Origin: Thermodesulfobacteriota bacterium
Lineage (GTDB): Bacteria > Desulfobacterota > Desulfobacteria > Desulfobacterales > SURF-7
Length of the DNA: 64,000 nt
NCBI GenBank assembly: GCA_049320885.1
Contig: JBMORA010000064.1
Span: 133,406-197,405 of the forward strand
Direction: 5' to 3'
The translations under genes and the position numbers were made by a program. Below are positions 30,376 through 61,821 of the stretch, in pieces. Numbering within the stretch: position 1 is the first letter of the stretch; every line of letters begins with the position of its first letter. The notes below the pieces were generated by a model. It was not told the DNA's origin. It saw nothing but the letters and a program-made list of their open reading frames with translations, and did no database searches.

Positions 30376-30843
30376 ATGATTCGCAAAGCAAAAGGCAACC
30401 AAGGTTTCACCCTGATCGAACTCATGATCGTCATCGCCATCATCGGTATTCTGGCAGCCATTGCCATTCCCAACTTCATCGCCTACCGGAACAAGGCATT
30501 CTGCAGCGCGGCTGAATCGGATGTCCGCAGTGTTGCGGCAGGTCTATCGGATTATTTCTCCATTGCAGCTCACACAGTTCTGCCCACCCAAGCTGCGGTT
30601 AGCGAAATTGACCTGAGCTACGGCAACAATGCTTTCTCTGTCCGGTTGAGCCGTTTCGGTCAGTCGACCGCCAATACGGGCACCATCAGTGGAACCGTTG
30701 ACAATATCTACATCACGGTTACGGATGAGAGCGGAAGATGCCCCGCCGACTACCGCCTGGTTAACCGGAACACCTGGACCGGTGAAGGTGGAGCGGCTGA
30801 CGGGTCGGATTGGGTTGCCTTTAAACGCATGATTCTTGAATAA
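30376..30843 (+). CDS. pilA: Type IVa major pilin
   Basis: Prepilin leader MIRKAKGNQG|FTLIELMIVIAIIGILAAIAIP with E5 and P22; AAGGAGG RBS; own promoter and terminator. Confidence 0.96.
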   Translation: MIRKAKGNQGFTLIELMIVIAIIGILAAIAIPNFIAYRNKAFCSAAESDVRSVAAGLSDYFSIAAHTVLPTQAAVSEIDLSYGNNAFSVRLSRFGQSTANTGTISGTVDNIYITVTDESGRCPADYRLVNRNTWTGEGGAADGSDWVAFKRMILE

Positions 30844-30846
30844 ACC

Positions 30847-30889
30847 AAAAAGCGAAAGGCGCATTTCCCATGCGCCTTTCGCTTTTTTT
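30847..30889 (+). terminator. Rho-independent terminator of pilA
   Basis: AAAAAGCGAAAGGCGCA-TTTCCCA-TGCGCCTTTCGCTTTTTTT. Confidence 0.92.
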
Positions 30890-31029: not shown

Positions 31030-33141
31030 GTGAGGGATGATAGAGCCGACGGATGGCTGATATTCCGAATTCCCGCCTTCCTGTTGCTGGCCGGTTTGAT
31101 TGTTCCGATCTACTATAACAGCCTGAAGGCCGAATGGCATCTGGATGACGAACCCAACATCCTGTTGAATCAGCGGTTGCATATCGAGACCCTGTCGCTG
31201 GATAGCATCGGCAAGGCCATTTTTTCCCGAAAACTTGGCCGTCCGGGATTATACCGGCCCCTGGCTTATCTTTCATTTGCCCTGAACTGGTATGCGGGGG
31301 GGCGGGATCCTGTTGGATATCATCTGGTCAATATCATTCTGCACACTGCCACTGCATGGCTGCTGTACCTGTTGTGCCGTTCTTTGCTGGAAATCCGTCC
31401 CGGCCTAAAGGAGAGCGGAAAAGAAACGGCGGCTTCCACTGCCTTGCTGGCGGCGGCCATATGGGCGATCAATCCCATCCAGACCCAGGCCGTGACCTAT
31501 ATTGTTCAACGCATGGCGGTTATGGCAGCGTTTTTTTACGTGCTGGGGATGTTGTCCTATGTCAAAGCCAGAACCGCGCCGGGTCTTTTCCAGCGCCGGT
31601 TTGCTTATGGCCGTTGTTGTTTCTGGTTCGTATGCGGTCTGGGCGCCAAGGAAAACGTGGCGCTTCTTCCACTGTCGCTACTACTGGTGGAATGGATTTT
31701 TTTCCAGAACGGTGGGTTTGATTTTATAAAGCGACCTCTTTTTTGGATCGTGGCGGGGGTATCGGTGCTGGCGATCCTAGTCACGGTGTTGGCGCTGACC
31801 GGCGGCGCTCCGCTGGAGTATATGTCGAGGAGATACAGCGCCAGACCTTTCACCATTTGGGAACGGCTGTTGACCCAACCCCGGGTGCTGATGATCTATC
31901 TATCCCAGCTGTTTTATCCCCTGCCGCAGCGCTTATCCATCACCCATGACCTTGCCCTTTCCACTTCCTTTTTCCATCCCTGGACGACATTGCCGGCGAT
32001 GATCGGCGCGATGGCCAGTATCGTGCTCGCAGCCCTGTCAGCGAGGCGGTACCCGCTGTTTTCCGTTGCGGTCTTGTTTTTTTTCTTGAATCATGGGGTG
32101 GAATCCAGCTTCTTCCCCCTGGAACTGGTCTTTGAGCATCGCAATTATTTGCCGTCCCTGCTGCTTTTTTTACCGGTGGCCGCTGGCTTGCAGCGGGTCC
32201 TGGGTTATTTGAAGAACCATAACCACTGGCTGCTGGCCGCGACCGTCGGTGTCCTGGCGATGACGTTGATCGGATTGGGCCTGGGAACCCACATTCGCAA
32301 TGAAACCTGGGCAACAAGAAAAAGTTTGTGGATCGATGCGGTACGGAAGTCTCCGGCTAATTATCGGGCCTTGTTCCAAGCCGGTCTTCAGTTTGCCTGG
32401 GATGATCATCCGACACAAGAAAAATACGACCTGGCCCTGCTCCTTTTTGAGCGCTGCCTGAATGTGGCTCCCCAGGAATTGAAGGACAGTGATGGCGATC
32501 GGGCGAGCATTTGGGGAAATATGGCCAGCATTTTTTATCGAACGAGGCAGTATGGCAGCGCCATAGAATTGTTTCATAAGTCTTTGGAGTTGAATCCGAA
32601 TTATGGAATGGCGCGCCATGATTTGATCGCTGCCTTGATCCAGGTCGGTCGCCTGGATGAGGCCCTGGAGCAGTCGGAAAAACTTGTCCGGCAGCATCCA
32701 TTCCGACCGGATTATCAAAGCAGAAGAGGTTTTTTATTGCTCTGGAGCAATCAATACGACCAGGCGTTGACCTGTTTTCAGCGGGCGCTGAGACAAGGGG
32801 ACGGGACGAACGATTTGATGGTGAATACGGGCGCGGCCTTGACCAAACTGAATCAGTGGCGGAACGGCATCTGGTTTTTGAATCAGGCGGCCAGGCTCAG
32901 ACCCTTGGATCCGTTCCCCCGGCTGGCTATGATCGAAAACCGGGTTCTGGCAGGAGACCGGGAAGGTGCGGAACGGAACGCCCGTAAGCTGGTGACGGCA
33001 TTCCCGGCTGGAAGCATCATGGCGGCATTGGCAACCATAGATCCAAGACACGGCCGTCCGCCCTTGTCGATAGAGGTAATCCGGCCTTTCATCCGGGATG
33101 CGTTGACGGCCGATCTGGTGGAATTGGGAATCCCGGATTAA
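31030..33141 (+). CDS. TMTC-like GT-C membrane glycosyltransferase with C-terminal TPRs
   Basis: WHLDD...ILLN, YRPL...SFALN, YHLVNIILH, NPIQTQAVTYIVQR, AKEN and FEHRNYLPS motifs, then TPR repeats. Confidence 0.85.
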   Translation: MRDDRADGWLIFRIPAFLLLAGLIVPIYYNSLKAEWHLDDEPNILLNQRLHIETLSLDSIGKAIFSRKLGRPGLYRPLAYLSFALNWYAGGRDPVGYHLVNIILHTATAWLLYLLCRSLLEIRPGLKESGKETAASTALLAAAIWAINPIQTQAVTYIVQRMAVMAAFFYVLGMLSYVKARTAPGLFQRRFAYGRCCFWFVCGLGAKENVALLPLSLLLVEWIFFQNGGFDFIKRPLFWIVAGVSVLAILVTVLALTGGAPLEYMSRRYSARPFTIWERLLTQPRVLMIYLSQLFYPLPQRLSITHDLALSTSFFHPWTTLPAMIGAMASIVLAALSARRYPLFSVAVLFFFLNHGVESSFFPLELVFEHRNYLPSLLLFLPVAAGLQRVLGYLKNHNHWLLAATVGVLAMTLIGLGLGTHIRNETWATRKSLWIDAVRKSPANYRALFQAGLQFAWDDHPTQEKYDLALLLFERCLNVAPQELKDSDGDRASIWGNMASIFYRTRQYGSAIELFHKSLELNPNYGMARHDLIAALIQVGRLDEALEQSEKLVRQHPFRPDYQSRRGFLLLWSNQYDQALTCFQRALRQGDGTNDLMVNTGAALTKLNQWRNGIWFLNQAARLRPLDPFPRLAMIENRVLAGDREGAERNARKLVTAFPAGSIMAALATIDPRHGRPPLSIEVIRPFIRDALTADLVELGIPD

Positions 33142-33264
33142 ACGAATCGATTCATTTTTCACCGGCAATATGATAAACATGCTGGTTTGGCGATGGTGAC
33201 GATTGACCCGGGAAGCGCTTGCCATCGTCAACGAGTATATCCAGGGATACTGAATTCGAAATTT

Positions 33265-34431
33265 ATGCGCTCATCAAAACCAATCATTCCATTGCCGTAT
33301 GCCTGGTATTATATCCCGGTGGTCCTGATCGCGATGATCGGCTTTTTCGACGCCTGCTATCTGGCTGTTTCCCATTACCGGGTGTATACCGATATGGAAT
33401 ATCAAAGTTTTTGCGCCATTTCCCGGGCGTTCAACTGCGACACGGTATCCCAAAGTCCCTATTCCATATTAATCGGGGTGCCGGTTCCGGTCTGGGGAAT
33501 CATCGGCTATGCGGTTGTAATTCTCCTGTTGCTGTTCGCCCGCCCGCAATTGGTTTCCGGGAAGCGCATCTGGACCCTGGTGTTCCTCATTTCCCTGGGA
33601 TTCAGCATTTACAGCATGGTGTTGGCGCTGATATCCACTTTTTGGATCGACAGTTATTGCATCATGTGCATCCTGAGCTACGCCGTGAACTTGTTGCTGC
33701 TCTATTTTTCATGGTTGATCCGCAAGCGATTTCAGGTGGAGCCGCTCTTATCGGCCGTCAAGCTGGATGTAGAACACTTGCTCCCGCGCAGCAAAAGAAG
33801 TTTGGGGTTTCTGGTTTGCTGTGTTTCCATCCTTCTGGCGGGACTGGCGGCACTGCCTTCCTATTGGCGCCTGAAGCCTCCGGAGTTGTCACAGGAGATT
33901 CCCACCGGGACAACCGCGGAGGGTTTTCCCTGGTGCGGAGCAGAGCACCCGAAACTGGTCATCACCGAATTTGCCGACTACCGGTGTTTTCAATGCAAGA
34001 AAATGCATTTTTTCCTGCGCAATCTAATCCAGAAAAATCCGGATAAAATTCGCTTGATTCATCGCCATTTTCCCATGGATCAGAAAATCAATCCGATCGT
34101 TCGGGAACCGTTCCACGAGGGGGCGGGATTGTTGTCCATGATTGCCATTGCGGCGGCCCGTGACGGAAAATTCTGGCCCATGAATGATCGATTGTTTGAA
34201 CTCGCCCGGGAAAGACAAGAAATGGACACCAAGATGTTGGCCCGGGATATCGGAATGGATCCCAAGAGCCTGGTGGACGCCCTGTTGGATCCCCGGACCA
34301 AAGCGCATCTATCCAGGGACATCCAGGACGGTATCCGGCTGGGAATATCGGGTACTCCCGCCTACCTGGTCGAAGGCAATCTGTATTTGGGATGGTTGCC
34401 GGGTAACGTATTGGCCAGGGTTATGGAATAG
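33265..34431 (+). CDS. VKOR-DsbA (thioredoxin-fold) fusion
   Basis: VKOR loop C(AISRAFN)CDTVSQSPYS and CIMC; C-terminal EFADYRCFQC, RHFP and GISGTP. Start uncertain (33187-33265). Confidence 0.9.
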   Translation: MRSSKPIIPLPYAWYYIPVVLIAMIGFFDACYLAVSHYRVYTDMEYQSFCAISRAFNCDTVSQSPYSILIGVPVPVWGIIGYAVVILLLLFARPQLVSGKRIWTLVFLISLGFSIYSMVLALISTFWIDSYCIMCILSYAVNLLLLYFSWLIRKRFQVEPLLSAVKLDVEHLLPRSKRSLGFLVCCVSILLAGLAALPSYWRLKPPELSQEIPTGTTAEGFPWCGAEHPKLVITEFADYRCFQCKKMHFFLRNLIQKNPDKIRLIHRHFPMDQKINPIVREPFHEGAGLLSMIAIAAARDGKFWPMNDRLFELARERQEMDTKMLARDIGMDPKSLVDALLDPRTKAHLSRDIQDGIRLGISGTPAYLVEGNLYLGWLPGNVLARVME

Positions 34432-34467
34432 AAGCCCTATCCGGCAGTGATATCTGGGTAAGGAGAT

Positions 34468-35799
34468 ATGGCTCATCGAAAAGAACTGACAGCGATTGTC
34501 CTGGTGTTTGTCCTGGCCCTGGAGATCCGGCTGATCTATCAGGCCGCCTCTGTGGTGGATACTCCCATTCGGGCCGACTCCGCCAAATATGTCGATGCTG
34601 CTTATAACCTGCGTCATTTCGGTGTCTATTCCCTGGACAGACCGCGTAAGGACAATCGACCGCCGCAATCGAATACAGACCTCGCGCCCGGCTACCCACT
34701 ATTTATCAGCCTGTTTTTACATGATAACAAGCTTTGGGGCAGCGGCATATTGAAGGTCCAGGCTGTCATGGGGTCCCTGGTGAGTGTTTCCGCCCTGCTG
34801 CTGGCACGAATGGCGCTGCCGTTTCCCTGGGCCGTGGCCGCCGGAATCATGACCGCGGCCAGCCCACATCTGGTGGCCATGGACGGTTATTTTCTTTCGG
34901 AAAGTCTTTTTACCTTTATCCTGATGTGCGGGATTGTATTGACCGCCCTTACCTGGCGGTACCGGCGTTACAGCATCTCCTTTGCAGCCGGCCTGATATT
35001 GGCCCTGTCATCCCAGGTGCGGGCGGTAAGCCTGTTGCTGCCCTTCTTTCTGGCCCTCGCTTTTTTGTTCACGGCGGAGGGCAAGCGCCCGCTAGCCTGG
35101 AAAACCATCGGTCATTCCCTCTGTTTCGCCATCGCTTTTCTGACAATCGCCGGGGCTCACAAATGGTTTATGAGGGCGGTCTCAATCCCGCAACAGGCGG
35201 CGATGGTTGCTATGGCGCCGCACAAGGGTTTCCGGGATGTCGGAAAAGTGATCCGGGGGATTCAATTCTGTCTGATTCCTCCGGAATTTTTTATCCAGGG
35301 GGTCGACCATGTATATGCCCGTCACGGGCACCGGGAATATCGGAATCCCACCAAGACACCTTTTCAGGATCGGCCGCTGCGCTATCTTCAGTGGGGGTTG
35401 TATGCCAAGCTGATCACCATGTGGCACTGGGACGACCTTTTTAACGGGGATGTCTACATTTACCCCATGCTGCGAAAAGGCTTCGAGGAGAACATGTTTC
35501 TGAAAACAGTGCACCGGTCGATGCGGATACTCCATTGGCCGCTGTTTTTTCTGGCCATGGCTGCGCTCCCCATGTTCTGGGTGCGCCGACGGTTGAAAAT
35601 GCAGCCGGACCGGGAAGGAGTTCTGCTTATACCCGCCATGGCCTTTGTCTATTTTCTGCTGCTGCTCTGGCTGATTTCCTGGATCACGCGGTACACCATT
35701 CCGGTCCGTCCGGTTTCATATGTCCTCGCCTGTGCCTCCCTGTATTGGCTTTGGAGCAGTGTCGGCAACCGTTTTCCCAATATCCGTGGAACCGCATGA
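34468..35799 (+). CDS. GT-C fold glycosyltransferase (ArnT/PMT-like)
   Basis: Polytopic membrane protein; acidic first loop RADSAKY...AYNL, PGYPLF, LSESLF and C-terminal RY.IPV. Confidence 0.78.
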   Translation: MAHRKELTAIVLVFVLALEIRLIYQAASVVDTPIRADSAKYVDAAYNLRHFGVYSLDRPRKDNRPPQSNTDLAPGYPLFISLFLHDNKLWGSGILKVQAVMGSLVSVSALLLARMALPFPWAVAAGIMTAASPHLVAMDGYFLSESLFTFILMCGIVLTALTWRYRRYSISFAAGLILALSSQVRAVSLLLPFFLALAFLFTAEGKRPLAWKTIGHSLCFAIAFLTIAGAHKWFMRAVSIPQQAAMVAMAPHKGFRDVGKVIRGIQFCLIPPEFFIQGVDHVYARHGHREYRNPTKTPFQDRPLRYLQWGLYAKLITMWHWDDLFNGDVYIYPMLRKGFEENMFLKTVHRSMRILHWPLFFLAMAALPMFWVRRRLKMQPDREGVLLIPAMAFVYFLLLLWLISWITRYTIPVRPVSYVLACASLYWLWSSVGNRFPNIRGTA

Positions 35800-37607
35800 A
35801 TATCGCCACGAGACAGATATCTTTCGTTGTTCCGAGAATGTCGATTGTTGCCGCACTGTTCATTCTATTTTGTCTGGCCTATATAGCAGCGCCTTATTGG
35901 CGAATTGATCCGTCAGCGGGAAACCGGATTCTGTTGCTGATGTTTACCATGTTGTCGGGGGCATTATGGGCCTTTTCAGCATCTGCTGAAGTCCGTTTGC
36001 AGGTATCGCGAGATCAGTTCGTTGATATGGTTTTTTGTTTTTTTCTAATGGGGGCGCTGAACCATCGGACTTTGACTGCTGGTATTCCGTGGAAGGGGGA
36101 CGAGGACTACCATATGATAATTGTGGGTGTCCTCGCCGGCCGGCCGGATTTGTTATCGGCCGGTTTTTGCCTGATGGCGGTTGTGATATATTGCACCTTA
36201 CGGCGTCCAAAATGGGTTGCCCCCTTGGCGATCCTGATGGTTTTTTATTGTATTTTCTGGGGTGCCTGGTTGAACCCGCAGCCTTCAATCCTATTGCGGT
36301 ATCCGTATTTTTCAAGATATTTTCAAGCGATTCCACCGGCCGTGGCCACCAGCTTCCAGGCCTTCCATAATGAACTGTCTTATCGCATTCTTCCGTTCCT
36401 GGCCTCGACAGTCACTGTCTGGATCTGCTGCCGGCAGAGCGGACTTGAACCAAAGAGAAGATTTCTCCTGGGGGCATCGCTTTGTTCCCTGCCGATTTTG
36501 TATTACTACTCCTCCATTCTGTATCTGGAAATGCCTGCCGTCGCTCTGATGATGATCACCATGGCCGGGATGCCGGGGTTGCTTACGGCGGACTTTGCGG
36601 AAATCCGTAAAAAACCCGAATGGTTTTCCCTTATAGCGGTCGGCTTCATAAAGGAAACCATGGCTGTTTTCCTGCTGGCCTATATCGGCTCCCGGTTGGC
36701 GATAGGGTTGATATCCCGTCGGCGGCGGGGGACATCTTCCGAAGATACATGGAGACGTTATTTTCCATGGGATGAAATCCGTATTCAGGCCGCTGTATTG
36801 CTGCCAACAGCGGTTTATCTGTTCTATCGTTTCGCATATGGTTCCAGAAGAAAATTCGAACCCAGTCTTGCTCATTTTACCGATCCCCGGATCTATTCCG
36901 TGTTTTTTCAATCCCTGCTGGAGCAATTCGGTTTGTTCTGCCTGTTTTCCGTATTGGGGCTGATAATTCTCATCCGGGAGAAAAAAAAACAAACAGCCGG
37001 TTTTATCCTGCTCACATTTTTAATGACATTCCTGTTGATTGCGGCCGACAATCCCTCTTATGTGGGGTATAGCCGTTTCAATCTTCTGTTGTTTCCCGCC
37101 ATCATGGTTCCGGCTGTAGAAGCCATCCGGATGATATCACGGAAACGCGAGACCATTGCCGGATTGATTCTTTGTGCGACAATCGCCGTGAATTTCGCGA
37201 TCAGCCCCATCCATATGGACGGCACCAAAAAGCCGTTGTGGGGGAGTGGGTTGTGTGATACTGCGGAACATTATTACCCGTACCGGGAGGCGTTGCGTTG
37301 GCTGAAGTCTGAAAGAGCAGCCGAGCCGCTTCTTTTTGCCGGCTTGAATTATTCGTATTATTTCCGTTTTTATTTTGATCAGCTCGGCTGGGAGCCTCGG
37401 CACGCCGTGATGTTTTCCGCAGCGAACGAGAAACCGGTGGAGACCCCGGGGAAGGTATTTTTCGCCGCCAATCGGAACCATTATAAGACCATCGTGTACC
37501 ATATCCCGCATGAAGGGGTAGTTCCGGCGGGAGGCGAATTCGGATATGGTTTAAAAAAAGTGTTTCGAAACCAAGCGCATGCGCTGGCGGTTTACGGCAG
37601 ATGGTGA
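35796..37607 (+). CDS. Polytopic membrane protein, probable GT-C glycosyltransferase
   Basis: ATG 35796 overlaps the upstream stop; many TM segments, loop WKGDEDYH, YLEMP, IKET, SRFNL and a soluble C-terminal domain. Confidence 0.6.
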   Translation: MNIATRQISFVVPRMSIVAALFILFCLAYIAAPYWRIDPSAGNRILLLMFTMLSGALWAFSASAEVRLQVSRDQFVDMVFCFFLMGALNHRTLTAGIPWKGDEDYHMIIVGVLAGRPDLLSAGFCLMAVVIYCTLRRPKWVAPLAILMVFYCIFWGAWLNPQPSILLRYPYFSRYFQAIPPAVATSFQAFHNELSYRILPFLASTVTVWICCRQSGLEPKRRFLLGASLCSLPILYYYSSILYLEMPAVALMMITMAGMPGLLTADFAEIRKKPEWFSLIAVGFIKETMAVFLLAYIGSRLAIGLISRRRRGTSSEDTWRRYFPWDEIRIQAAVLLPTAVYLFYRFAYGSRRKFEPSLAHFTDPRIYSVFFQSLLEQFGLFCLFSVLGLIILIREKKKQTAGFILLTFLMTFLLIAADNPSYVGYSRFNLLLFPAIMVPAVEAIRMISRKRETIAGLILCATIAVNFAISPIHMDGTKKPLWGSGLCDTAEHYYPYREALRWLKSERAAEPLLFAGLNYSYYFRFYFDQLGWEPRHAVMFSAANEKPVETPGKVFFAANRNHYKTIVYHIPHEGVVPAGGEFGYGLKKVFRNQAHALAVYGRW

Positions 37608-37688
37608 GAACGGGGTGCTTGACAACCCGTGAAGCCCTTGGGATGTTCGGGTCAAAACCGCGACGACAAACGGAAAAAATGGACCGTG

Positions 37689-38585
37689 ATGAAACCAAAA
37701 ATAACAGTCATCATTCCTGCCTATAACGAGGCGGAAACCATCGCTGATGTGATTGCCAAAATCAGAACGCTTCATCCGGATTTCAGTATCATCGTCATCA
37801 ACGACGGTTCCGGGGACGACACGGCAAGCAAGGCCCTTGAAGCCGGCGCGGAAGTCTACAGCCATCCCTACAATATCGGAAACGGGGCGGCCGTGAAAAA
37901 CGGAATCCGGATGGCGGAAGCGGATATCCTGGTTTTCATGGACGGCGACGGCCAGCACAATCCGGATGATATCGGGCTGCTGTTGGAACAGCTTGGCGAC
38001 TATGACATGGTGGTCGGCGCCCGTTCCATGACCGGACATACCTCCTTTACGCGGGCTTTTGGAAACAGGGTATATAATTGGCTGGCTTCTTATGTGGCCA
38101 ATTTCCGTATCGTAGATCTGACCTCCGGCTTCCGGGCTGTGAAGGCGGATTTGGCAAAGGAATTTATTTATTTGTTGCCGAATACCTACTCCTACCCGAC
38201 CACCTTGACGCTGGGTGCCCTCCGAAGCGGCTGGAGTGTCAAATATGTTTCGATCAAGATGCGCAAACGGGAGAAAGGCAAAAGCAATATCAGCATTGTC
38301 AAGGACGGCGCCCGCTTTTTCATGATCATTACCAAGATATGTACTCTTTTTTCGCCCCTGAGGGTTTTTCTGCCGGTGAGTTTCAGCATGTTCCTGATGG
38401 GTGTTTTATATTATTTTTACACTTTTATAACCCAAGGGCGTTTTACCAACATGAGCGCGGTGCTGTTGACCAACGCGGTGGTGATTTTCATGATGGGCCT
38501 TGTATCGGAACAGATCAGCCAGATGCGCTCCGAGAGGCGTCTGCGCAGTCGGGTGAAAAAAGAATCGGATCAGAAAGAGTATTGA
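37689..38585 (+). CDS. GT2 glycosyltransferase, DPM1-like (polyprenol-phosphate sugar synthase type)
   Basis: IIPAYNE, NDGSGD, GNGAA, MDGDGQH, DLTSGFR and two C-terminal TM helices. Confidence 0.9.
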   Translation: MKPKITVIIPAYNEAETIADVIAKIRTLHPDFSIIVINDGSGDDTASKALEAGAEVYSHPYNIGNGAAVKNGIRMAEADILVFMDGDGQHNPDDIGLLLEQLGDYDMVVGARSMTGHTSFTRAFGNRVYNWLASYVANFRIVDLTSGFRAVKADLAKEFIYLLPNTYSYPTTLTLGALRSGWSVKYVSIKMRKREKGKSNISIVKDGARFFMIITKICTLFSPLRVFLPVSFSMFLMGVLYYFYTFITQGRFTNMSAVLLTNAVVIFMMGLVSEQISQMRSERRLRSRVKKESDQKEY

Positions 38586-42562: not shown

Positions 42563-42630
42563 GAAAGCAGGAAGTGAGAAAATGCCCGGCATGCGAAAAA
42601 ACCTGAACTGGTTCCAATACGGGGAAAATC

Positions 42631-44180: not shown

Positions 44181-44406
44181 CGAGGGGCAGATCCGCGCCG
44201 CAATGAAAGCAGCCGGCGTCGACATCAATGTGGACAAAATAGCGGTGGATACCTCACTTCGGGATGCCGGTATGGACAGCCTGGATATGTTCAATCTTTT
44301 TTTGGAGATTGAAACCGCCTTTCAAATCAAAATTCCGGATGAGGCCATTGAAAATCTTCAAACCATTGAGGAGATCCGGAACTACCTGAATCAAAGCGTT
44401 CGATGA
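44173..44406 (+). CDS. Acyl carrier protein
   Basis: 77 aa, acidic, with phosphopantetheine motif GMDSLD and IETAFQIKIPD. Confidence 0.93.
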   Translation: MINEGQIRAAMKAAGVDINVDKIAVDTSLRDAGMDSLDMFNLFLEIETAFQIKIPDEAIENLQTIEEIRNYLNQSVR

Positions 44407-45527: not shown

Positions 45528-45544
45528 GCTTCCCCGGGAGTGAT

Positions 45545-47917: not shown

Positions 47918-47971
47918 TCTTTTCCCCCTGGGCTGATGCCGATCCATTCGGATAAATTACATGGAGGCAAA

Positions 47972-49264: not shown

Positions 49265-49283
49265 AAAAAGCAGTTTTAATGGG

Positions 49284-52143: not shown

Positions 52144-52279
52144 CGCTGTCTCAATCGGTTTTTCCGGAAGCCGGAATTGGATTGGGGAGTCTATGTCTCT
52201 CGGCATTACGGCGATATTCTGATTCGGATTTGAAAAAAGATCAAGTGATATGATACCAATTCCATCCAGGGAGGTGTGA

Positions 52280-53632: not shown

Positions 53633-53689
53633 TATAAAAATCCTTCAACTCACTACTGTTTTTTCATTACATCACCCATATGAGGAATC

Positions 53690-55105
53690 ATGAAGGTCTT
53701 ACTGATCAATCCCCCCCGGTTGGCGGAAATCGCCGGTAATAACCCGGCCATCATAGAAGAACAGAGAGGTTTTAATCCGCCGTTGGGTCTTTTGTATATC
53801 GCCGCGTTTCTTGAAAAGAGCGCGGAGCACGAAGTGCGTGTGCTGGATTCCCAGGTGGAGAAACTGGGCTATGACGGATTGAAGCAAAGAATCGCTGACC
53901 TGCGGCCCGATATTGTCGGTATCACCGCCATGACGCTGACGTTGATCGATGTGTTGCAAACCGCGGCAACCGTCAAGGAGATCAATCCCGATACGATCGT
54001 GGTATTGGGCGGGCCCCATGTCAATTTGTTTCCGGAAGAAACCATCCGTTTTGCCAATGTGGATTATCTGGTGCTGGGAGAAGGCGAGGAGGTGTTCCGG
54101 GACCTGGTTGCAGCCATCGATAAGGGGGGAGATCCGGCCGCAATAAAAGGAGTCTTTTTTTTATGTAACGGCGGCATCGTCAATACCGGTTCCAGGCCGC
54201 ATATCGAGAATTTGGATGCGCTGCCCTTTCCTGCAAGGCACTTGGTGCCGTATCGGCAGTATACTTCCCTGCTTTCCAAAGGGAAGGTCGTAACCACCAT
54301 CATCACCAGCCGCGGCTGTCCATACCAGTGCGCTTTCTGCGACCGCCCCAGTCTTGGCAAAAAATTTCGCGCCCGTTCGGCCGTGAATATCGTCGACGAG
54401 CTGGAGGAATGCGTCCAAATGGGAATTCAGGAATTCCTGTTCTATGACGACACGTTTACCGTCAGCAAGAAAAGAGTATTGGAGGTCTGCCGGGAGATTG
54501 TGCGGCGCAGGTTGACAATATCCTGGGACATCCGCGCCAGGGTGGATACGGTGGACGAGGAAATGCTGGCCCATCTGAGGCGTGCGGGATGCAGCGGGAT
54601 CCATTACGGGGTGGAGGCCGGCACGGAAAAAATCCTGAAGGTGTTGAACAAAGGTATCTCCCTCGCCCATGCCGCAACCATTTTCAAGCTGACCCGCCGG
54701 CAAAAGATACAGACGTTGGCCTATTTCATGATCGGAAATCCCACCGAGACCATTGCGGATATTCAGGCAACATTCCGGATGATGAAACGCCTGAATCCGG
54801 ATTACGTTCATCTGACCATATTGACCCCTTTCCCCGGCACCCGGATCTATCTGGATGGCCTCAAGTCCGGGAGAATCGAAAAGGATTGGTGGCGGGAATT
54901 CGCCCGCAATCCCCGGAAGGACTTTATGGCGCCGCACTGGAACGAATTCTTCACCAAGGAAGAATTGAACCGTCTGTTGGTGAAAGGCTACCGGTCTTTC
55001 TATCTGCGGCCGAACTATATACTACGAAGGATTTGGAAACTTCACTCCTTCCGCGAGTTGAAAACCAAGGCCGCGGCTGGTGTAAAGGTTTTACGGATGC
55101 GATGA
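53690..55105 (+). CDS. Cobalamin-dependent radical SAM protein
   Basis: B12-binding N-terminus (PPLGLLYIA, GGPH, GEGE), SRGCPYQCAFC, YDDTF and PFPGT. Confidence 0.94.
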   Translation: MKVLLINPPRLAEIAGNNPAIIEEQRGFNPPLGLLYIAAFLEKSAEHEVRVLDSQVEKLGYDGLKQRIADLRPDIVGITAMTLTLIDVLQTAATVKEINPDTIVVLGGPHVNLFPEETIRFANVDYLVLGEGEEVFRDLVAAIDKGGDPAAIKGVFFLCNGGIVNTGSRPHIENLDALPFPARHLVPYRQYTSLLSKGKVVTTIITSRGCPYQCAFCDRPSLGKKFRARSAVNIVDELEECVQMGIQEFLFYDDTFTVSKKRVLEVCREIVRRRLTISWDIRARVDTVDEEMLAHLRRAGCSGIHYGVEAGTEKILKVLNKGISLAHAATIFKLTRRQKIQTLAYFMIGNPTETIADIQATFRMMKRLNPDYVHLTILTPFPGTRIYLDGLKSGRIEKDWWREFARNPRKDFMAPHWNEFFTKEELNRLLVKGYRSFYLRPNYILRRIWKLHSFRELKTKAAAGVKVLRMR

Positions 55106-55168
55106 GAGAATTAGCGTGTCGGTCGGAATACGGAAACGGAGAACCTGACCGATGGCGGAAGGTGGATT

Positions 55169-56608
55169 ATGCAATATGCGATGGATGACCCGTTGTTTGA
55201 TATCGTTCTGCTAAACATAAACTATTCGAATCATGCGGATGCCGCCGAAGGTTTGGTCCCGCCCTTAGGGCTGTGCTATATTTCTTCCTATTTAAAAAAC
55301 CTGTCAATAAAATCCAAAATAATTGACGCAAACGCATTGAACCTGAAAGAAGAAGAAATAATCGGCCTGCTTGCGAAATACCGGCCCAGAGCCGTCGGAA
55401 TATCCGCAACCACTCCAACCATAGTAAAAGCTTACGAAACAATTGATTGTATAAAATCCTTTTTCCCTGGAATGGTGGTTATTATCGGCGGTCCGCATCC
55501 ATCCGCTTTGCCGAGGCAGACATTGGAGGAAAATAAAAATATCGATATCGTGGTCAAGGGGGAAGGAGAAATCACAACACGCGAACTTGTCGCGGCGATT
55601 AAAAAGAATGAAGGCTATAGAGGGATTAAGGGGATAATTTATCGTGAAGGTACGGAAATTCGAGTGAATCCCCAAAGAGAAAGAATAGTTGATATAGATC
55701 AATTGCCTTTCCCGGACAGATCGGATTTGCCCATCCACAAATACAGACCGTCGATAAAGTGGTATCAGCGCACCCCCTTCACAACGATAATGACTTCCAG
55801 GGGTTGCCCAAATGATTGTATTTTTTGTGCTTCCAAAAATATACTGGGACGGACCGTGAGGTTTCGTTCGCCTGAAAATGTGATCGCTGAAATCAAACTC
55901 TTAATCGAACAGTTCGGGATTAAAGAAATCATTTTTTATGACGATACATTCACGCACAATAAAAAACATGCCCAGCGGATCTGTGAATGCATGCTTAGGG
56001 AAAAACTTGATATAACATGGGGGTGCTTGAGCCGGGTCGATAAAGTGGATAAGCCGCTCTTGGAACTTATGAAGAAAGCCGGCTGCCATATCCTGTCGTA
56101 TGGTGTGGAATCCGGAAATCAAGAGATGCTGCGGAGGATGAGAAAAAAAACAAAGCTTGAACAGATACGGGAAGCAATAAAAGCAACAACTGAAGCGGGC
56201 ATCGATATTTCCACATCCTTTGTTTTTGGCGTGCCCGGGGAAACCAAGGCGTCAATGGAAGAAACCATTCGATTCGCCTTGGAAATAGATCCGCTGTTCG
56301 CCCAATTTTATCGGGTTGTCCCTTTTCCAGGTACGGATTTGTTCACGATGTATCTGGAACAAAATGCCGGGGAAAAAATTAAATGGCAGGAATTCCTTGA
56401 AGTGGGAAATTCAGATAATTTGATTAAGCTAGATACGATTACGACGGCGGATTTTAACCGGTTGTTGAAAGAGAGCTACAAACGTTTTTATTTGCGACCA
56501 AGTAAGATATTGAAAATATTATACAAAATGTCAACGCCTTATAAAATCCAAGGACTTCTGCGGGCATTTGCCGCATTTATGGGCATTGTGGTAAAAAAGA
56601 AGCAGTAA
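55169..56608 (+). CDS. Cobalamin-dependent radical SAM protein (second copy)
   Basis: PPLGLCYIS, GGPH, GEGE, SRGCPNDCIFC, YDDTF, GVESG and PFPGT motifs. Confidence 0.94.
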   Translation: MQYAMDDPLFDIVLLNINYSNHADAAEGLVPPLGLCYISSYLKNLSIKSKIIDANALNLKEEEIIGLLAKYRPRAVGISATTPTIVKAYETIDCIKSFFPGMVVIIGGPHPSALPRQTLEENKNIDIVVKGEGEITTRELVAAIKKNEGYRGIKGIIYREGTEIRVNPQRERIVDIDQLPFPDRSDLPIHKYRPSIKWYQRTPFTTIMTSRGCPNDCIFCASKNILGRTVRFRSPENVIAEIKLLIEQFGIKEIIFYDDTFTHNKKHAQRICECMLREKLDITWGCLSRVDKVDKPLLELMKKAGCHILSYGVESGNQEMLRRMRKKTKLEQIREAIKATTEAGIDISTSFVFGVPGETKASMEETIRFALEIDPLFAQFYRVVPFPGTDLFTMYLEQNAGEKIKWQEFLEVGNSDNLIKLDTITTADFNRLLKESYKRFYLRPSKILKILYKMSTPYKIQGLLRAFAAFMGIVVKKKQ

Positions 56609-56703: not shown

Positions 56704-57576
56704 TTATGGCAACCGTTTATCGATCAGGTCGGCCAGCATTCCGATGGCCAGAACGAGCACCGAGGTCATGACCAGCACCCCGAAGGTGACATCCATGATT
56801 CTGTCGGTGACAAGCCAGCTGACAACGGCCACCATAATGGCGCAGACCAGCAGTAAACCGCTCATGGGGATGAATACCTGCAGCGGTTTGAAATACAAAC
56901 AGGTCCGGATGATCAGCTGCAGGAAATTGAGGGTGTCATAGAACGGGCGAATCTTTGATTTCCCACCGCGTTCATAGTAGTTGATAGGCAGGAATTGAAC
57001 CCGCAGGTTGTTGGTGAGCATGGCCAGTGTAATGGTGGTGGTGAAGGAAAAGCCGTCCGGCAATATGTTCATGAAGCGCCGGATATCCTCGCGCTTCATG
57101 ATGCGAAGACCGGAGTTGATGTCAGGGATGGTGGTTCCGGCCAGATAATTCGCCAGCCGATTCAGAATTCCTTTGGCCACCTTCCGGAACAGCGGGATTT
57201 TGACAATCTTGCCGGTCCGCGCACCGACGACCATGGAGGCGTCGACTCGTTTCATTTCATGGAACAAGTCGGGGATTTGCTCGTTCGGATAGGTTCCATC
57301 GGCATCCGTGATGCAGATATAGGGGGCCGTGGAGATTCCGATCCCGGTTTTCAGGGAGGCTCCGTATCCTCGATTCACCGGGTGATGAATGACCGTGAAG
57401 CCGGGATGGTTTATCCGGGACAACAATTCCCGGGTCCGGTCGGTGGAGCCGTCATTGACGAACACGACTTCAAATTCCGGTTCCGACCGTCGTGTCAGAT
57501 CCTCCAGCTGACGGATGGTTTCCGGCAGGTTGGCTTCTTCGTTGAAAACCGGTATTACAATTGCGATTCTTTCCAC
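56704..57576 (-). CDS. GT2 glycosyltransferase, DPM1-like
   Basis: IPVFNE, NDGSTD, NRGYGA, DADGTY, DINSGLR and two C-terminal TM helices; GTG 57576 has an AGGAG RBS (longer starts overlap or crowd the divergent gene). Confidence 0.9.
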   Translation of the reverse strand: MERIAIVIPVFNEEANLPETIRQLEDLTRRSEPEFEVVFVNDGSTDRTRELLSRINHPGFTVIHHPVNRGYGASLKTGIGISTAPYICITDADGTYPNEQIPDLFHEMKRVDASMVVGARTGKIVKIPLFRKVAKGILNRLANYLAGTTIPDINSGLRIMKREDIRRFMNILPDGFSFTTTITLAMLTNNLRVQFLPINYYERGGKSKIRPFYDTLNFLQLIIRTCLYFKPLQVFIPMSGLLLVCAIMVAVVSWLVTDRIMDVTFGVLVMTSVLVLAIGMLADLIDKRLP

Positions 57577-57647
57577 ACCGGCGCTCCTGTGAGGCAGTTT
57601 GTTCGCATGGACATTCATCAATACAAGGCAGCAATACCAGGTGAAAC

Positions 57648-59756
57648 ATGAAAAACGGTTCCAATGGTCTTTCGCCGCAACGGCTTGAAATTCTGTTTTT
57701 GCTGCTGGCGGCATGTCTGGTTTTATTAGTCTATTCCAACACCTTTCACAATCCTTTTATTTTTGACGATGTGGTCGGCATTACCGGGAATCCCAACATA
57801 CGGCTGAAGGAGTTCACGCTTGGGGGGCTTTTGCGGGCACCGCTCGATAATGAATATTCGTCCCGTCCGGTGGCCTTGATCAGTTTCGCCCTGAATTATT
57901 ATTTCCATCAGTACGATGTTTTCGGGTATCATCTCGTCAATATCCTGATTCATATCATAACCGGGACAATGCTGTATTTTTTTCTGAAAACAACATTGAT
58001 CCTGCACTCGAAAAATGCCGCCTTGGCATCCGACCTGCAACCGCACGGCATCCAGGTCGTTGCCTATGTGGCAGCGCTTGTCTGGTTTGTTCATCCGGTC
58101 CAGACGCAGTCGGTGAATTACATGGTTCAACGGATGAACAGCCTGGCGGCCATGTTTTTCATCGTATCCATGCTGCTGTATGCCCAATCGCGCCGGCTGC
58201 GAAATAGTCGCGCCGCCCGGCCGCTGTTGATGGGTTCCTTCCTTTCGGGGCTCCTGGCCATTGCCTCAAAGGAAAATGCGGTGATGCTGCCGGTGGTGAT
58301 GCTGTTGTATGAATGGTATTTCATTCAAGACCTGAACCGGAGATGGCTCAGGCGGAATGCGATTCTGTTCGGGGCAATCGCGGTGTTCGCTGGAATCACG
58401 GTGGTGATTTTTCTGGGCGCCCACCCCCTGGATACAATTGCCGCCATGTATGCCAAGAAAGGTTTCACCCTTTCCCAAAGGCTTATGACCGAATCCCGGG
58501 TGCTGGTGTACTATGTCAGCCTGCTGGTTTTCCCCCATCCGTCCAGATTGAATCTGGAGTATGATTTTCCTCTTTCCCGGGGTCTGCTAAATCCTCCGGA
58601 CACCTTGTTTTGTCTGGCGGTTTTGGCGATTCTGACTGGTGCTGCCGTCGTCAATGCCCGGAAAGAACGCTTGCTTTCTTTCTGTGTGCTGTGGTTTCTG
58701 GGAAATCTTATCATCGAATCAACGGTGATTCCCGTTGAAATCATTTTCGAGCACCGGCTGTACCTTCCTTCCATGTTTGTTGCCCTGTTATTCGTCATCC
58801 TGGGGCAGCGGCTTCTTTCAATGCGTTGGCTGCGGGTCGGCGTGGTGCTGTTGGTCCTGTCCGTTTTTTCCGTCTGGTCCTTTGAAAGAAACAAGGTCTG
58901 GCAGACCGAGGAGGCTCTTTGGACGGACTGTACCCGGAAATCGCCGGAGAAATACAGACCGTGGGTGAATCTCGGCGAGGCCCTTTCCCGGCAGGGAAGG
59001 ATGCGGGAGGCGGCGGAACAATACCGGGTGGCGCTGCGCATCCATCCCCGGCATGATGCCTGCCGCTACAATCTGGGCAGCGCCTTGTACTCCCTGGGAG
59101 AAATCGAGGAAGCCATCGTGCAGTTTCAGGAAGCGCTGCGGCTGAATCCATTGCATTCGCAGGCGCATAACAATCTTGGGATCGCCCTGATTCAGCAGGG
59201 CCGGCTGGAAGAGGGTATTCAGCATTTCAAGGCGGCCCTGGATATTGATCCCAAGGATGCAAAAGCCGCAATGCACCATCGGCTGGCGACTTCCATTTAT
59301 CGTCAGATTGAAACCGAAGCGGATGGTTTTGAAGCGGCGCTCCGGGAAATTTCCGTTGATGATTCGGAGCTGCCGATAAAATTTGAATTGCTGCATAAAC
59401 GCAAGGCCGGTCTGGAGACGGCTCTGGAACGGTTTCGCGGGGCTTTATCGCGTCAGCACGGGCATCCGGCCCTGGATGCGGATAGAATTTCCAAGGTCCG
59501 CATGGTGAAAGCGGCGTATGAAGCGCGGTTGCCTGTTTTTGAGTCCATCGCTGCCGTACATCCCGATTTTCCGTCCGTTTATTATGATATCGCCTGCATC
59601 AAGGCGCGGCTGGAAGAATCAACGGAAGCCCTGGCGTATCTTCACAAGGCGATTCAATACGGATTCCGGAACGCGGGGCTACTGAAAATGGATCGGGATC
59701 TGGATGCGATAAGGGAAAGGGTTCACTACATCGAAGGCGATGGGCACGGCGGCTGA
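57648..59756 (+). CDS. TMTC-like GT-C membrane glycosyltransferase with TPRs (second copy)
   Basis: FIFDD...ITGN, SRPV...SFALN, YHLVNILIH, HPVQTQSVNYMVQR, SKEN and FEHRLYLPS motifs, TPRs, and a terminal YYDIAC...GF...DRDLDAIR repeat. Confidence 0.87.
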   Translation: MKNGSNGLSPQRLEILFLLLAACLVLLVYSNTFHNPFIFDDVVGITGNPNIRLKEFTLGGLLRAPLDNEYSSRPVALISFALNYYFHQYDVFGYHLVNILIHIITGTMLYFFLKTTLILHSKNAALASDLQPHGIQVVAYVAALVWFVHPVQTQSVNYMVQRMNSLAAMFFIVSMLLYAQSRRLRNSRAARPLLMGSFLSGLLAIASKENAVMLPVVMLLYEWYFIQDLNRRWLRRNAILFGAIAVFAGITVVIFLGAHPLDTIAAMYAKKGFTLSQRLMTESRVLVYYVSLLVFPHPSRLNLEYDFPLSRGLLNPPDTLFCLAVLAILTGAAVVNARKERLLSFCVLWFLGNLIIESTVIPVEIIFEHRLYLPSMFVALLFVILGQRLLSMRWLRVGVVLLVLSVFSVWSFERNKVWQTEEALWTDCTRKSPEKYRPWVNLGEALSRQGRMREAAEQYRVALRIHPRHDACRYNLGSALYSLGEIEEAIVQFQEALRLNPLHSQAHNNLGIALIQQGRLEEGIQHFKAALDIDPKDAKAAMHHRLATSIYRQIETEADGFEAALREISVDDSELPIKFELLHKRKAGLETALERFRGALSRQHGHPALDADRISKVRMVKAAYEARLPVFESIAAVHPDFPSVYYDIACIKARLEESTEALAYLHKAIQYGFRNAGLLKMDRDLDAIRERVHYIEGDGHGG

Positions 59757-60841
59757 TCAGCCGTGACTGCCTGCAGAATCGTTTCCAGCCGGACGGCAAG
59801 ATCGGTCCAGGTGGTGGGGGGATCATAATCCGTCTCCCGGTCGGTCAAGCGCTGTTCTATTCTGGATGCCAGTTGAACGGCGTCCTCGGGATCATACAAC
59901 CACTCGGGGTGCTCCTTCAGCAGGTCTTTCAGGCTACCGACGGCCGAGGCGATGATCGGAACATCGCAGGCCATGAATTCTCTGGTTTTCTGGGGGAAAC
60001 AATAGCGGCCGAAGGCGTCGTTCGGATAACAGATAACCCCTATGTCGAGAGCGTTCAGGAATACAGGCACCGTCTCATGGGGTAGTATGCCGCAATCGCA
60101 AATGGCCGGGTCGTCGGGAAAAACCGCATCCCGGGGGCCGGCCAGCGCGAGGTGCAGGCCGGGATATCGGTGCCGCAATTGTGTAAAGGCCTCGATCAAT
60201 ACAAAAATATTTCGGTTTTTGTACAGTGCTCCGCAGGCGCCGATAATGGTTGCGGAGACCGGCAGCCCCATGACCTCGCGGCAATGTTTCCGATCCATTG
60301 GTTTGAACAGATCGGAACGTACCGCGAACTCGATGGGGTAAATACGAGACTGCCGCGGGAATTCGGCGGCCAGATAGTCGGCAAAGGCGCTGCTCAAACA
60401 GGTGACGGCGTCGCTGTGTCGAATGGCCCAGTGATATAACTGGCGGACAACCGGGAGTCGGCCAACAAAGAACTCTCCGAAATTGTCGTAGATGTCGAAT
60501 ACCACCGGGCATCGATGGATACGACCCAGGAAACAACCGATGATGCCGTAGAACGAATCGGAGCAGGCCCAGATGACATCCGATCGGGCTGCCAGGCGGC
60601 GGGCAGCCATGATGAACCGAAACAATCCGGAGGCTTTAGAAGGTCCGGCGTTGATGCTTTTCCAGTTTACCGGTCCATCCGCGATCCAGCCTTCGGTCCG
60701 TTTGCGATAACTGAGGCACAGACCCGTTACGGTGTGGCCCCTCTCGGCCAGGGCCAGAGGGATTTCACGAAAGCGCCCGAACCGGTCGTCGATCAAGTCT
60801 TTGTTCATATACTGGCGTTTGGTTAGAATGAGAATCTTCAT
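59726..60841 (-). CDS. GT4 family glycosyltransferase
   Basis: LAERGHTV, FDIYD and FPQKTREFMACDVPIIASAVG motifs; 3' end overlaps the convergent TPR gene by 31 nt. Confidence 0.88.
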   Translation of the reverse strand: MKILILTKRQYMNKDLIDDRFGRFREIPLALAERGHTVTGLCLSYRKRTEGWIADGPVNWKSINAGPSKASGLFRFIMAARRLAARSDVIWACSDSFYGIIGCFLGRIHRCPVVFDIYDNFGEFFVGRLPVVRQLYHWAIRHSDAVTCLSSAFADYLAAEFPRQSRIYPIEFAVRSDLFKPMDRKHCREVMGLPVSATIIGACGALYKNRNIFVLIEAFTQLRHRYPGLHLALAGPRDAVFPDDPAICDCGILPHETVPVFLNALDIGVICYPNDAFGRYCFPQKTREFMACDVPIIASAVGSLKDLLKEHPEWLYDPEDAVQLASRIEQRLTDRETDYDPPTTWTDLAVRLETILQAVTADQPPCPSPSM

Positions 60842-61821
60842 CGGTCTGATGTCCGGAGGCGCCGGTGCCAGTTCCAGGCGGTTTGGAGGATTTCTTCTAT
60901 ACCCGGGAAATGCGCTTGCCAGCCGAGCAACCGCTGCGCCTTGGAGTTATCGGCCACCAGCATCGGTGGATCACCCTTGCGCCGGTCGCAGGTGACAACC
61001 GGAATCGCGCGGCCGGTAATGGCGGCGGCGGCTTTGATGATCTGGGTGATCGAATACCCGTTGCCGGTCCCGATGTTGACGCAATCGCTCGGTTCGCCGG
61101 CCCTCAGCCTATCGAGTGCCAGCACGTGGGCAACGGCAAGATCACTCACGTGAATGAAATCCCGCACGCAGGTGCCGTCTTCGGTCGGGTAGTCGACGCC
61201 GTAAACGCTCATTGCAGATGAATTTCCGTGGGCCACGTCCAGAACCCGGGGAATAATATGCGGTTCCGGATGGTGATCCTCGCCAAGGTCGCCTTCCGGG
61301 TCCGCGCCGGCGGCATTGAAGTATCTCAAGCTGGTGTACCGCAGATTGCCGGTTCTGGCGCAGTCTTCCAGTATGGTTTCAACCATGACCTTGGTTCGGC
61401 CGTAGGGATTGATGGGCTTTTGGGGGTGGGCCTCGTTGATCGGCAGATAATCCGGGATGCCGTAGGTGGCGCAGGAAGAAGAAAATATGAAGATCTCGAT
61501 GTGGCTGGATATGGCAAACCGCAGCAGATCGATGGTTTTCGCAACATTGTTGACGTAATATTTGAGAGGATCGCTGACCGACTCACCCACATAGGCGTAG
61601 GCCGCGAAATGCATGATCGCCCCGATATCGAATCCGGTAAGAATCTCGCGCAATATTGAATGGTCGGCGAAGTCGCCTTCAAAAAGCGGGCCCCATTGGA
61701 CCGCTTCCCGGTGTCCGGTGACGAGATTGTCCAGGGTGACCGGGGTATGTCCCGCACGTGACAGCTCCTTGCAGCAATGGGACCCGATATATCCGGCGCC
61801 GCCGGTAACGAGGACATTCAT
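60838..61821 (-). CDS. galE: UDP-glucose 4-epimerase
   Basis: VTGGAGYIGSH, HFAA...VGES, YGRTK, LRYFNAAGA and DGTCVRDFIHV motifs. Confidence 0.96.
   Translation of the reverse strand: MNVLVTGGAGYIGSHCCKELSRAGHTPVTLDNLVTGHREAVQWGPLFEGDFADHSILREILTGFDIGAIMHFAAYAYVGESVSDPLKYYVNNVAKTIDLLRFAISSHIEIFIFSSSCATYGIPDYLPINEAHPQKPINPYGRTKVMVETILEDCARTGNLRYTSLRYFNAAGADPEGDLGEDHHPEPHIIPRVLDVAHGNSSAMSVYGVDYPTEDGTCVRDFIHVSDLAVAHVLALDRLRAGEPSDCVNIGTGNGYSITQIIKAAAAITGRAIPVVTCDRRKGDPPMLVADNSKAQRLLGWQAHFPGIEEILQTAWNWHRRLRTSDR

Follow-up and report, generated by a model that had tools for sequence, protein, structure and literature searches.

A small conserved core and a variable sugar cargo beside pilA: a probable pilin glycosylation locus in a Thermodesulfobacteriota bacterium

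In a 64-kb stretch of the genome of a Thermodesulfobacteriota bacterium (the window; contig JBMORA010000064.1), the type IV pilin gene pilA (30376) is followed by about 31 kb of genes, up to a tRNA-Lys gene (62394), which include six GT-C-like membrane enzymes; genes are named here by their start position in the window. Our analysis revealed that these 31 kb are not one conserved unit but a small core joined by variable cargo. The core consists of pilR, pilA, the TMTC/TfpW-like GT-C gene 31030, the VKOR-DsbA fusion 33187, the GT-C gene 50443 and the AglJ-like GT2 gene 37629. Its likely role is to glycosylate PilA and to form its disulfide bond in the periplasm, and the cargo would then set the composition of the glycan. 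We put the probability that the GT-Cs of the locus glycosylate PilA at roughly 0.8.

The argument is carried by the persistence of this core beside pilA in related genomes (G labels, with G000 for the genome of this stretch; C labels are contigs and L labels fetched loci). The named relatives with 50443-family loci are mostly Desulfobacterales and other deltaproteobacteria, and since all compared genomes are kin, the synteny counts that follow overstate independence, which has to be held against the reading from the outset. In the fetched loci the genes were called by a dipeptide-score caller, so that small genes may be missed, and were labelled by phmmer or hidden Markov model (HMM) comparison with the proteins of the window. 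Among the best 80 of 461 loci of the 50443 family, 49 have at least 9 kb upstream and are evaluable; in 44 of them pilA and the 50443 orthologue are no more than 10 kb apart (the remaining loci being L082, L091, L097, L122 and L157), with a median gap of 3.5 kb and a background of about 0.4%. Within about 10 kb of the orthologue the same 49 loci have a TMTC-like gene in 40 cases, pilR in 37, the GT2 in 36 and the VKOR fusion in 26. Counted by genome, 50443 has a match in 39 of 60 relatives, nearly always as one copy, and it lies on the contig of the best pilA within 40 kb in 22 of these and on other contigs in 17. Moreover, the gene remains at pilA despite rearrangements on either side of it. 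An orthologue of 37629, mostly single-copy, is found in 25 of the 60 relatives.

Starting from pilA itself gives a similar picture for the TMTC-like gene. Four of the 28 loci anchored by pilR ended too soon, and 21 of the 24 evaluable ones have a TMTC-like gene within 3 kb of pilA (background about 1.4%); the strictest count, which drops nine loci first fetched as TMTC matches and two short loci counted only through a match, is 10 of 13. All three pilR-anchored loci lacking this gene carry 50443. In fact the two enzyme types occur apart in both directions: G034 (L044; best E 7.8e-4) and G310 (L134; zero TMTC-like profile matches) have pilA, VKOR and 50443 with no TMTC-like gene detected, while G003, G005, G032, G036, G038, G040 and G059 have a TMTC-like gene beside pilA and no 50443, so that 50443 may well represent a second, independent route. 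The synteny comparison proposed in an earlier sequence-only reading of this DNA thus comes out strongly in favour of a conserved link to pilA, for the core genes. The pilins themselves are less telling, for composition separates those near a GT-C poorly from the others: the Ser/Thr fraction is 0.23 in 86 pilins near a GT-C and 0.18 in 11 without, and N-sequons occur in 80% and 91% of them, respectively.

The rest of the locus is far more changeable. That reading had taken the whole 31 kb as one system, but relatives lack the greater part of the middle block or carry it apart from pilA. This holds even within the genus, where G002 carries NeuABC-like genes and an ABC transporter as cargo and G001 a different Wzx with amidotransferases. 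The VimE-like gene is found in one of the 60 relatives. Some pieces do recur, for example the Wzx-FabH-GNAT-VimE block, which in L222-L223, from another family, again adjoins the pilA core, and a GT4-VimE pair beside the core in L190. The GT4 59726 orthologue, moreover, keeps company with both the pilA core and the 37629 orthologue: it is present in 14 of 250 genomes of the order, in the pilA locus in seven and in unrelated contexts in two, and it lies within 20 kb of the 37629 orthologue in nine of the 14.

HMM and structure searches agree with the earlier view that the six membrane proteins are GT-C-like, 35796 only moderately so. The AlphaFold model of 31030 (predicted local distance difference test score, pLDDT, 93.5) has a membrane domain at residues 7-426 and a TPR tail. 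This domain matches AglB (Z 18.6), STT3B (17.8), Pmt (17.6), ArnT (17.5) and ALG12 (17.3), with root-mean-square deviations (rmsd) of 4.0-5.1 over 295-325 aligned residues, and no TMTC structure is among the matches listed. Foldseek and HMM searches of the PDB with full-length 31030 gave only TPR proteins among the matches listed, and profiles of its N-terminal domain found none among PDB sequences. The protein keeps DD, YRP, KE and EHRNY as counterparts of TMTC motifs (in the cited section of PMC7801869). Residues D39, R76, K207, E369, R371 and Y373 are kept in 36 of 36 family members; D39, K207 and R371 fill the GT-C positions of an acidic residue in the first outer loop, a Lys after transmembrane segment (TM) 5 and an Arg before TM10. 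Its paralogue 57648 (E 1e-69) is assigned by homology only. Among TMTC-like proteins at large, a Y-x6-P element stands in the large loop of 134 of 141 (75/78 A-type and 59/63 B-type). A predicted complex of 31030 with mature PilA scored 0.23, below the mark of 0.32, which speaks neither for nor against an interaction.

For 50443 (model pLDDT 83.6) the top 20 structure matches are all GT-C proteins, with ArnT (Z 25.5), AglB (24.8), ALG12 (24.7) and Pmt (24.5) matched over 372-448 residues at rmsd 4.4-5.0, and its C-terminal domain is AglB-like (Z 9.1). The family keeps D58, K199 and R389, in the first-outer-loop acidic, post-TM5 and pre-TM10 positions, in 21 of 21 members, and the WWD motif in none of the 21. 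The 52280 protein, whose homologues are GT39/ArnT-like and include Candidatus Electrothrix proteins, reaches 27.6 bits for PMT_2 in the genome search (cut-off 26.1) and 23.5 bits, below the cut-off, in the window scan; 34468 is a GT-C by homology to it only. For 35796 the Atlas feature score to PMT_2/ArnT clusters is 0.98, hhalign gives a probability of 2% (E 0.024), and Pfam and NCBIfam give zero matches; D102, K286 and R427 are kept in 63 of 63 family members, with invariant DE, KE and R. Two identities can be set aside: none of the six proteins matches Wzy_C, which rules out Wzy or WaaL, and an N-glycosylation oligosaccharyltransferase of the STT3/PglB/AglB type is excluded by an STT3 profile unmatched genome-wide, by the missing WWD in 50443 and by the lack of a sequon in PilA.

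A second question is how a glycan would be started, flipped and ligated. As that reading had noted, an initiating phosphoglycosyl transferase (PGT) or WecA, a Wzz regulator and a PglL/TfpO/WaaL-type ligase are missing from the locus, and family scans found no PGT, WecA, Wzz or Wzy_C gene in the window; the genome has PGTs and a likely WaaL elsewhere. Queries taken from G000 for PGT, WecA, Wzy_C, Wzc and GtrA gave zero matches in 106 pilA-region loci (1.83 Mb including duplicates). Pfam, run on 55 membrane proteins from such loci (54 of the 57 flagged, plus one), assigned 15 to GT-C families, 13 to Wzx/MurJ types, nine to LPG_synthase_TM and seven to no family, and none to Wzy_C, PGT, WecA or Wzz. 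Judged as a Wzx/Wzy-type cluster, the locus has Wzx (40419) and lacks the initiating PGT or WecA, Wzy, and Wzz/Wzc. Elsewhere in G000 there are two PF02397 PGTs, each inside its own Wzx/Wzy/Wzc cluster, and three PF00953 genes. GtrA-type flippases are absent from the locus and number two elsewhere in the genome, DegT-type aminotransferases likewise none and eight, and STT3 is absent from the whole genome. The sequence-only reading had held that an ordinary lipopolysaccharide or exopolysaccharide cluster would show Wzy/WaaL membrane proteins, an initiating transferase elsewhere and an unconserved pilA link; initiating transferases and a likely WaaL do lie elsewhere, but the membrane proteins are not of these kinds and the link is conserved for the core.

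From the observed gene content, predicted folds, motifs and synteny we infer the catalytic steps, donors and acceptor as follows, in a two-route mechanism onto PilA to which we give a little less than an even chance. The GT2s 37629 and 56704 would load single sugars onto undecaprenyl phosphate; TIGR04182 (AglJ) is the best family for both, at 135 and 115 bits respectively against a cut-off of 325. The TPR-bearing 31030 and 57648 may then bind the membrane-anchored pilin and attach single sugars to its Ser and Thr residues, as TfpW and the TMTCs do, and VKOR-DsbA would form the Cys33-Cys112 bond. In parallel, a lipid-linked sugar may be lengthened in the cytoplasm by the GT4s, which would add an N-acylated, methylated diamino-uronic acid; Wzx would flip the resulting oligosaccharide, and 50443 would transfer it en bloc; 34468, 35796 and 52280 could add side sugars. 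By the logic of the Wbp/Vim pathway the acyl cassette is predicted to serve N-acyl tailoring of the uronic acid (its deacetylase matches VimE at 190 bits, below the cut-off of 440). As to priming, a monophosphate carrier as in Haloferax fits, because no PGT is at hand and AglJ is the best match of the GT2s, though below cut-off; alternatively the WecA-like enzyme on C30 may be the primer. The complete archaeal version, for the major pilin of Desulfobacterales-type bacteria, in which an AglJ-like GT2 primes undecaprenyl phosphate, GT4s add the acylated diamino-uronic acid, Wzx flips, 50443, from a so far unnamed family, acts as a new O-oligosaccharyltransferase on a PGT-free route, the TMTC types add single sugars and the cargo defines a pilus "serotype", seems doubtful to us as a whole.

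Several explanations compete with this. The sequence-only reading had proposed that the whole 31 kb serves to assemble the glycan stepwise on the periplasmic face, each unit coming from a polyprenyl-monophosphate monosaccharide and no en bloc step being involved. Such a route would agree with six GT-C-like enzymes and two AglJ/DPM-like GT2s, with the lack of PGT, WecA, Wzz and Wzy_C matches around pilA, and with the many relatives that have only GT-Cs and the GT2 near pilA; TfpW, too, both starts and extends its chain from a monosaccharide donor (in the cited part of 10.1101/2020.04.19.049825). Yet it leaves Wzx and two GT4s unexplained, no GtrA-type flippase stands in the locus, and relatives do not keep the block together. 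GT4 enzymes use nucleotide sugars in the cytoplasm; Wzx and two GT4s, one of them (59726) having an orthologue at pilA in 7 of 14 other genomes, point to an oligosaccharide made there and then flipped, which tells against a purely stepwise periplasmic route, and we consider that route quite unlikely. Another possibility is that the core adds single sugars to PilA and that the Wzx/Wbp/acyl/GT4 block is parked O-antigen or exopolysaccharide cargo, started on undecaprenyl diphosphate by the C30 enzyme and ligated by WaaL. A stand-alone WecA-like PF00953 gene does lie on C30 beside fcl, gmd and ugd, a Wzy_C gene beside a heptosyltransferase on C28 is a likely WaaL, DegT is absent from the locus, and the WbpB/D-like orthologue is at pilA clearly in one, probably two, of the 16 relatives having it; the Wbp product is an O-antigen sugar elsewhere (in the cited section of PMC7468200). 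The WecA-like gene, the likely WaaL and the placing of the WbpB/D-like orthologues also count against the reading we prefer, in which the cargo serves PilA. Against parked cargo speak a separate Wzx-like/GT/DegT cluster on C30 itself, 13 kb away from the WecA-like gene, the association of GT4 59726 with the core, and the recurrence of the Wzx-FabH-GNAT-VimE block beside it; we hold this explanation unlikely.

The GT-Cs may also act on something other than PilA, be it lipid A or glycolipids, a surface glycan, or other proteins that are secreted or associated with the pilus, the pilA link then reflecting co-regulation or a shared surface function; this we likewise regard as improbable. Several observations weigh against a pilin substrate. 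In G000, 10 of 13 TMTC-like genes lie outside pilin loci, and in a class of small genomes (that of G307; 0.6-1.8 Mb) 24 of 25 TMTC-like loci (L161-L185) have no pilin within about 1.5 kb; no claim made here depends on G369, an unpublished genome included in that comparison. Furthermore, a second pilA, 88% identical (G000:C47:30960-31427, L031), stands alone between a Kdo transferase gene and pfk with no GT-C neighbour. A TMTC-like gene alone therefore implies no pilin substrate, and the case rests on persistent synteny, which for 50443 is weaker outside the order, where 9 of 17 fetched loci contain a pilin (phylum-wide, its profile matches 27 of 250 genomes). Structurally, 50443 matches best with ArnT, which modifies lipid A, and neither ArnT nor ALG12, both among its nearest structures, has a protein as its substrate: they act on lipids or glycans. 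A strong hairpin lies between pilA and the remaining genes, several of which are on the opposite strand. As for 31030, Pfam TMTC_DUF1736 has no match in the genome and matches one of 36 family members at E 0.57, and the DW motif of TMTCs is replaced by H306-D307, so we call the protein TMTC-like and not a filed TMTC member, even though Atlas features link it (score 0.93, rank 18) to a DUF1736 cluster from eukaryotes; 0 of 141 TMTC-like proteins contain YX6PFX7P, the complete motif of TfpW. Against other acceptors and in favour of PilA, single-copy 50443 keeps to pilA through rearrangements. VKOR-DsbA tracks the pilin Cys pair: of 43 loci, it occurs in 23 of the 25 where the pilin carries Cys33 and another Cys further along, and in none of the 18 where this pair is lacking, a match that amounts to about three joint changes on a quick tree and is thus suggestive only. 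Finally, each of two distinct pilin systems has a TMTC-like neighbour of its own: a second TMTC-like gene of G000 faces a second, MSHA-like pilin within a pilus cluster (G000:C12:136771-152444, L030), a convergent pair kept in eight relatives, and TfpW offers a precedent.

The features are collected in Table 1. All genes that had been listed from the letters were found in their places in the open reading frame list and family scans: two DPM1-like GT2s, two GT4s, one Wzx, two B12 radical SAMs, the sugar-nucleotide enzymes, the acyl cassette and two methyltransferases. Two things had been absent from that list, the VKOR-DsbA fusion and the TPR tails of 31030 and 57648. The pilA gene is preceded by pyrB-pyrC-pilR; mature PilA has 145 amino acids (aa), Cys33 and Cys112, 24 Ser/Thr and zero N-sequons. 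The site before pilA resembles a sigma-54 promoter by its GG-N10-GC pattern, the consensus of such promoters. In this genome 50443 is displaced 20 kb from pilA. FabH-like, ACP, GNAT and VimE-like deacetylase genes span 43242-46987, and the 204-aa protein next to them (42631-43245) has zero Pfam or NCBIfam matches. The locus did not arise by chimeric assembly: a single 50.7-kb contig of run X1 covers 26001-63303 with zero differing letters, although this run is possibly where the DNA itself came from, and near-identical short pieces occur along the locus in runs X2 and X3 of another study. GC content ranges from 0.46 to 0.57, with no island signal.

Table 1. Features of the pilA locus (positions in the window)
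Feature	Position	Strand	Basis
PilR-type sigma-54 activator, upstream anchor	28588..30000	+	Pfam Response_reg and Sigma54_activat
Sigma-54 -24/-12 promoter-like site, GG-N10-GC, before pilA	30184..30198	+	read from sequence
pilA, type IVa major pilin, likely acceptor (inferred role)	30376..30843	+	
18-bp hairpin with T-runs, terminator-like, 3' of pilA	30847..30887	.	
Core: TMTC/TfpW-like GT-C with C-terminal TPRs	31030..33141	+	predicted model, motifs
Core: VKOR-DsbA fusion, likely pilin disulfide oxidase	33187..34431	+	Pfam VKOR and DSBA; two CxxC
Accessory GT-C, 52280 paralogue	34468..35799	+	profile E 5e-59
Accessory, probably GT-C, weakest of the six	35796..37607	+	Atlas feature score, invariant residues
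Core: AglJ/DPM-like GT2, two C-terminal TMs, DGD motif; predicted polyprenyl-phosphate sugar synthase	37629..38585	+	
Cargo: fused WbpB/WbpD-like dehydrogenase and N-acetyltransferase, diacetamido-uronic acid pathway	38764..40335	+	
Cargo: Wzx-type flippase	40419..41858	+	Pfam Polysacc_synt
Cargo: methyltransferase (41855), 204-aa protein, FabH-like, ACP, GNAT, VimE-like deacetylase	41855..46987	+	
Cargo: FkbM methyltransferase (47063), GT4 (47936), non-hydrolysing UDP-GlcNAc 2-epimerase (49284, minus)	47063..50366	.	
Core: single-copy GT-C, ArnT/AglB-like periplasmic C-domain; tightest pilA partner in relatives	50443..52206	-	
Accessory GT-C, PMT_2/GT39-like	52280..53632	+	
Cargo: two B12-binding radical SAM enzymes (53690, 55169)	53690..56608	+	
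Second AglJ/DPM-like GT2	56704..57714	-	
Second TMTC-like GT-C-TPR	57648..59756	+	
GT4 (59726) and GalE (60838)	59726..61821	-	

Other pilA loci hold further gene kinds worth recording. In the slot of the GT-Cs, TMEM260-like-TPR, YfhO and GT87 GT-Cs are found (L058:9466-11559; L056, L058, L113), and undecaprenyl-phosphate recycling genes (BacA, VCA0040-like) occur within two pilA-region loci (L142:17008-18806, L150:20018-20935). A trio of TPR and ABC-transporter-like genes, which we take to resemble the Geobacter xap arrangement, replaces the GT-Cs at pilA or stands beside them in L063, L067, L070, L072 and L199; the pilin of L063 is short, at 59 aa. TMTC-like genes are common in the small-genome class mentioned above, and in L171 one is flanked by four pilins. 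In G000 itself, C57 carries four tandem TMTC-like genes with a GT2 and DUF2304 pair and a membrane spermidine-synthase-TPR fusion (10545-32057; L027, L028), adjoining a run of DUF6160 secreted proteins, and this is possibly another surface filament with its glycosylation kit. A three-component amino-sugar system is seen on C31 (63436-79670; L026), with PglD-like, DegT, GT2 and GtrA genes, a membrane protein and four TMTC-like genes, and no pilin nearby. On C38 (83120-89962) there are two PMT_2 GT-Cs, whose neighbours we presume to be UbiA-type, DprE1-like and DprE2-like enzymes, possibly a pathway to D-arabinofuranose (D-Araf), the donor sugar of TfpW.

That reading had called the system undescribed, which goes too far, for TfpW shares its position and architecture and a cable-bacterium cluster of pilA, TPR genes and a lipid-carrier glycosyltransferase has already been drawn. 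In the cited sections, the literature already holds pilin glycosylation by a pilA-adjacent GT-C-TPR protein (TfpW), prokaryotic TMTC homologues (PMC7801869) and the cable-bacterium cluster (PMC10580974). Our searches of open-access literature gave no paper joining TfpW, TMTC-like proteins and pilA clusters for this bacterial group. To this the locus contributes a measured association between single-copy 50443 and pilA, the occurrence of 50443 independently of the TMTC type, and Wzx/GT4 cargo that lacks a PGT. Should the reading be true, type IV pili would be glycosylated and highly variable in most members of an order of abundant anaerobes and probably in the cable bacteria, with consequences for adhesion, for phage escape (pilin glycans reportedly block phage in a Pseudomonas study) and for the view that such pili are bare conductive filaments. 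Current annotation calls bacterial TMTC-like proteins just "TPR protein"; they would gain a small candidate substrate, making TMTC-type chemistry accessible in a simple system, and 50443 would be a candidate new oligosaccharyltransferase family on a PGT-free route. Named cultured relatives exist, for example Desulfosarcina alkanivorans (L092).

Compared with known systems, as described in the cited sections of each source, the locus shares parts with several. The Wbp/Vim pathway of Porphyromonas gingivalis has WbpB/D-like enzymes, a VimE-like deacetylase and an N-acyltransferase re-acylating a diamino-uronic acid (PMC7468200), whereas here such genes, with a below-cut-off VimE match, stand beside an ACP/FabH cassette and a pilin locus. 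In Haloferax volcanii, AglJ primes a monophosphate lipid, glycosyltransferases extend it, flipping and en bloc transfer of the chain follow, and outside a second lipid-phosphate sugar is joined on (PMC3871713), a logic that accommodates Wzx and GT4s without a PGT; the locus differs in having no AglB/STT3, no WWD in 50443, no PilA sequon and an AglJ match below cut-off. A cable-bacterium pilA cluster contains TPR genes, a phospholipid-carrier-dependent glycosyltransferase, another glycosyltransferase and a methyltransferase (PMC10580974, Fig. 4 legend), that is, the same gene kinds at pilA, and 52280 has homologues in Candidatus Electrothrix; there, however, the TPR proteins are termed interaction proteins, not GT-Cs. 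Animal TMTC1-4 are protein O-mannosyltransferases that use Dol-P-Man and have full-length prokaryotic homologues, a deltaproteobacterial one among them (PMC7801869). They resemble 31030 in a GT-C domain with a TPR tail and in the DD, YRP, KE and ER..Y motifs, and differ in DUF1736 and in DW, for which 31030 has HD; the likeness is known from sequence and a predicted model, not from donor or acceptor. The nearest parallel in setting is TfpW, the pilin D-arabinofuranosyltransferase of Pseudomonas aeruginosa group IV (Pa5196/PA7; 10.1101/2020.04.19.049825), to which the locus is likened by position, architecture and motifs, not by sequence homology: the gene is directly 3' of pilA, and the protein is a GT-C with DD in the first periplasmic loop, Y-x6-P in the large loop, a C-terminal TPR and a lipid-linked donor. 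In contrast to that system the locus shows no recognised D-Araf genes, and it has up to six GT-Cs, a VKOR-DsbA fusion, AglJ-like GT2s and a Wzx/GT4 module.

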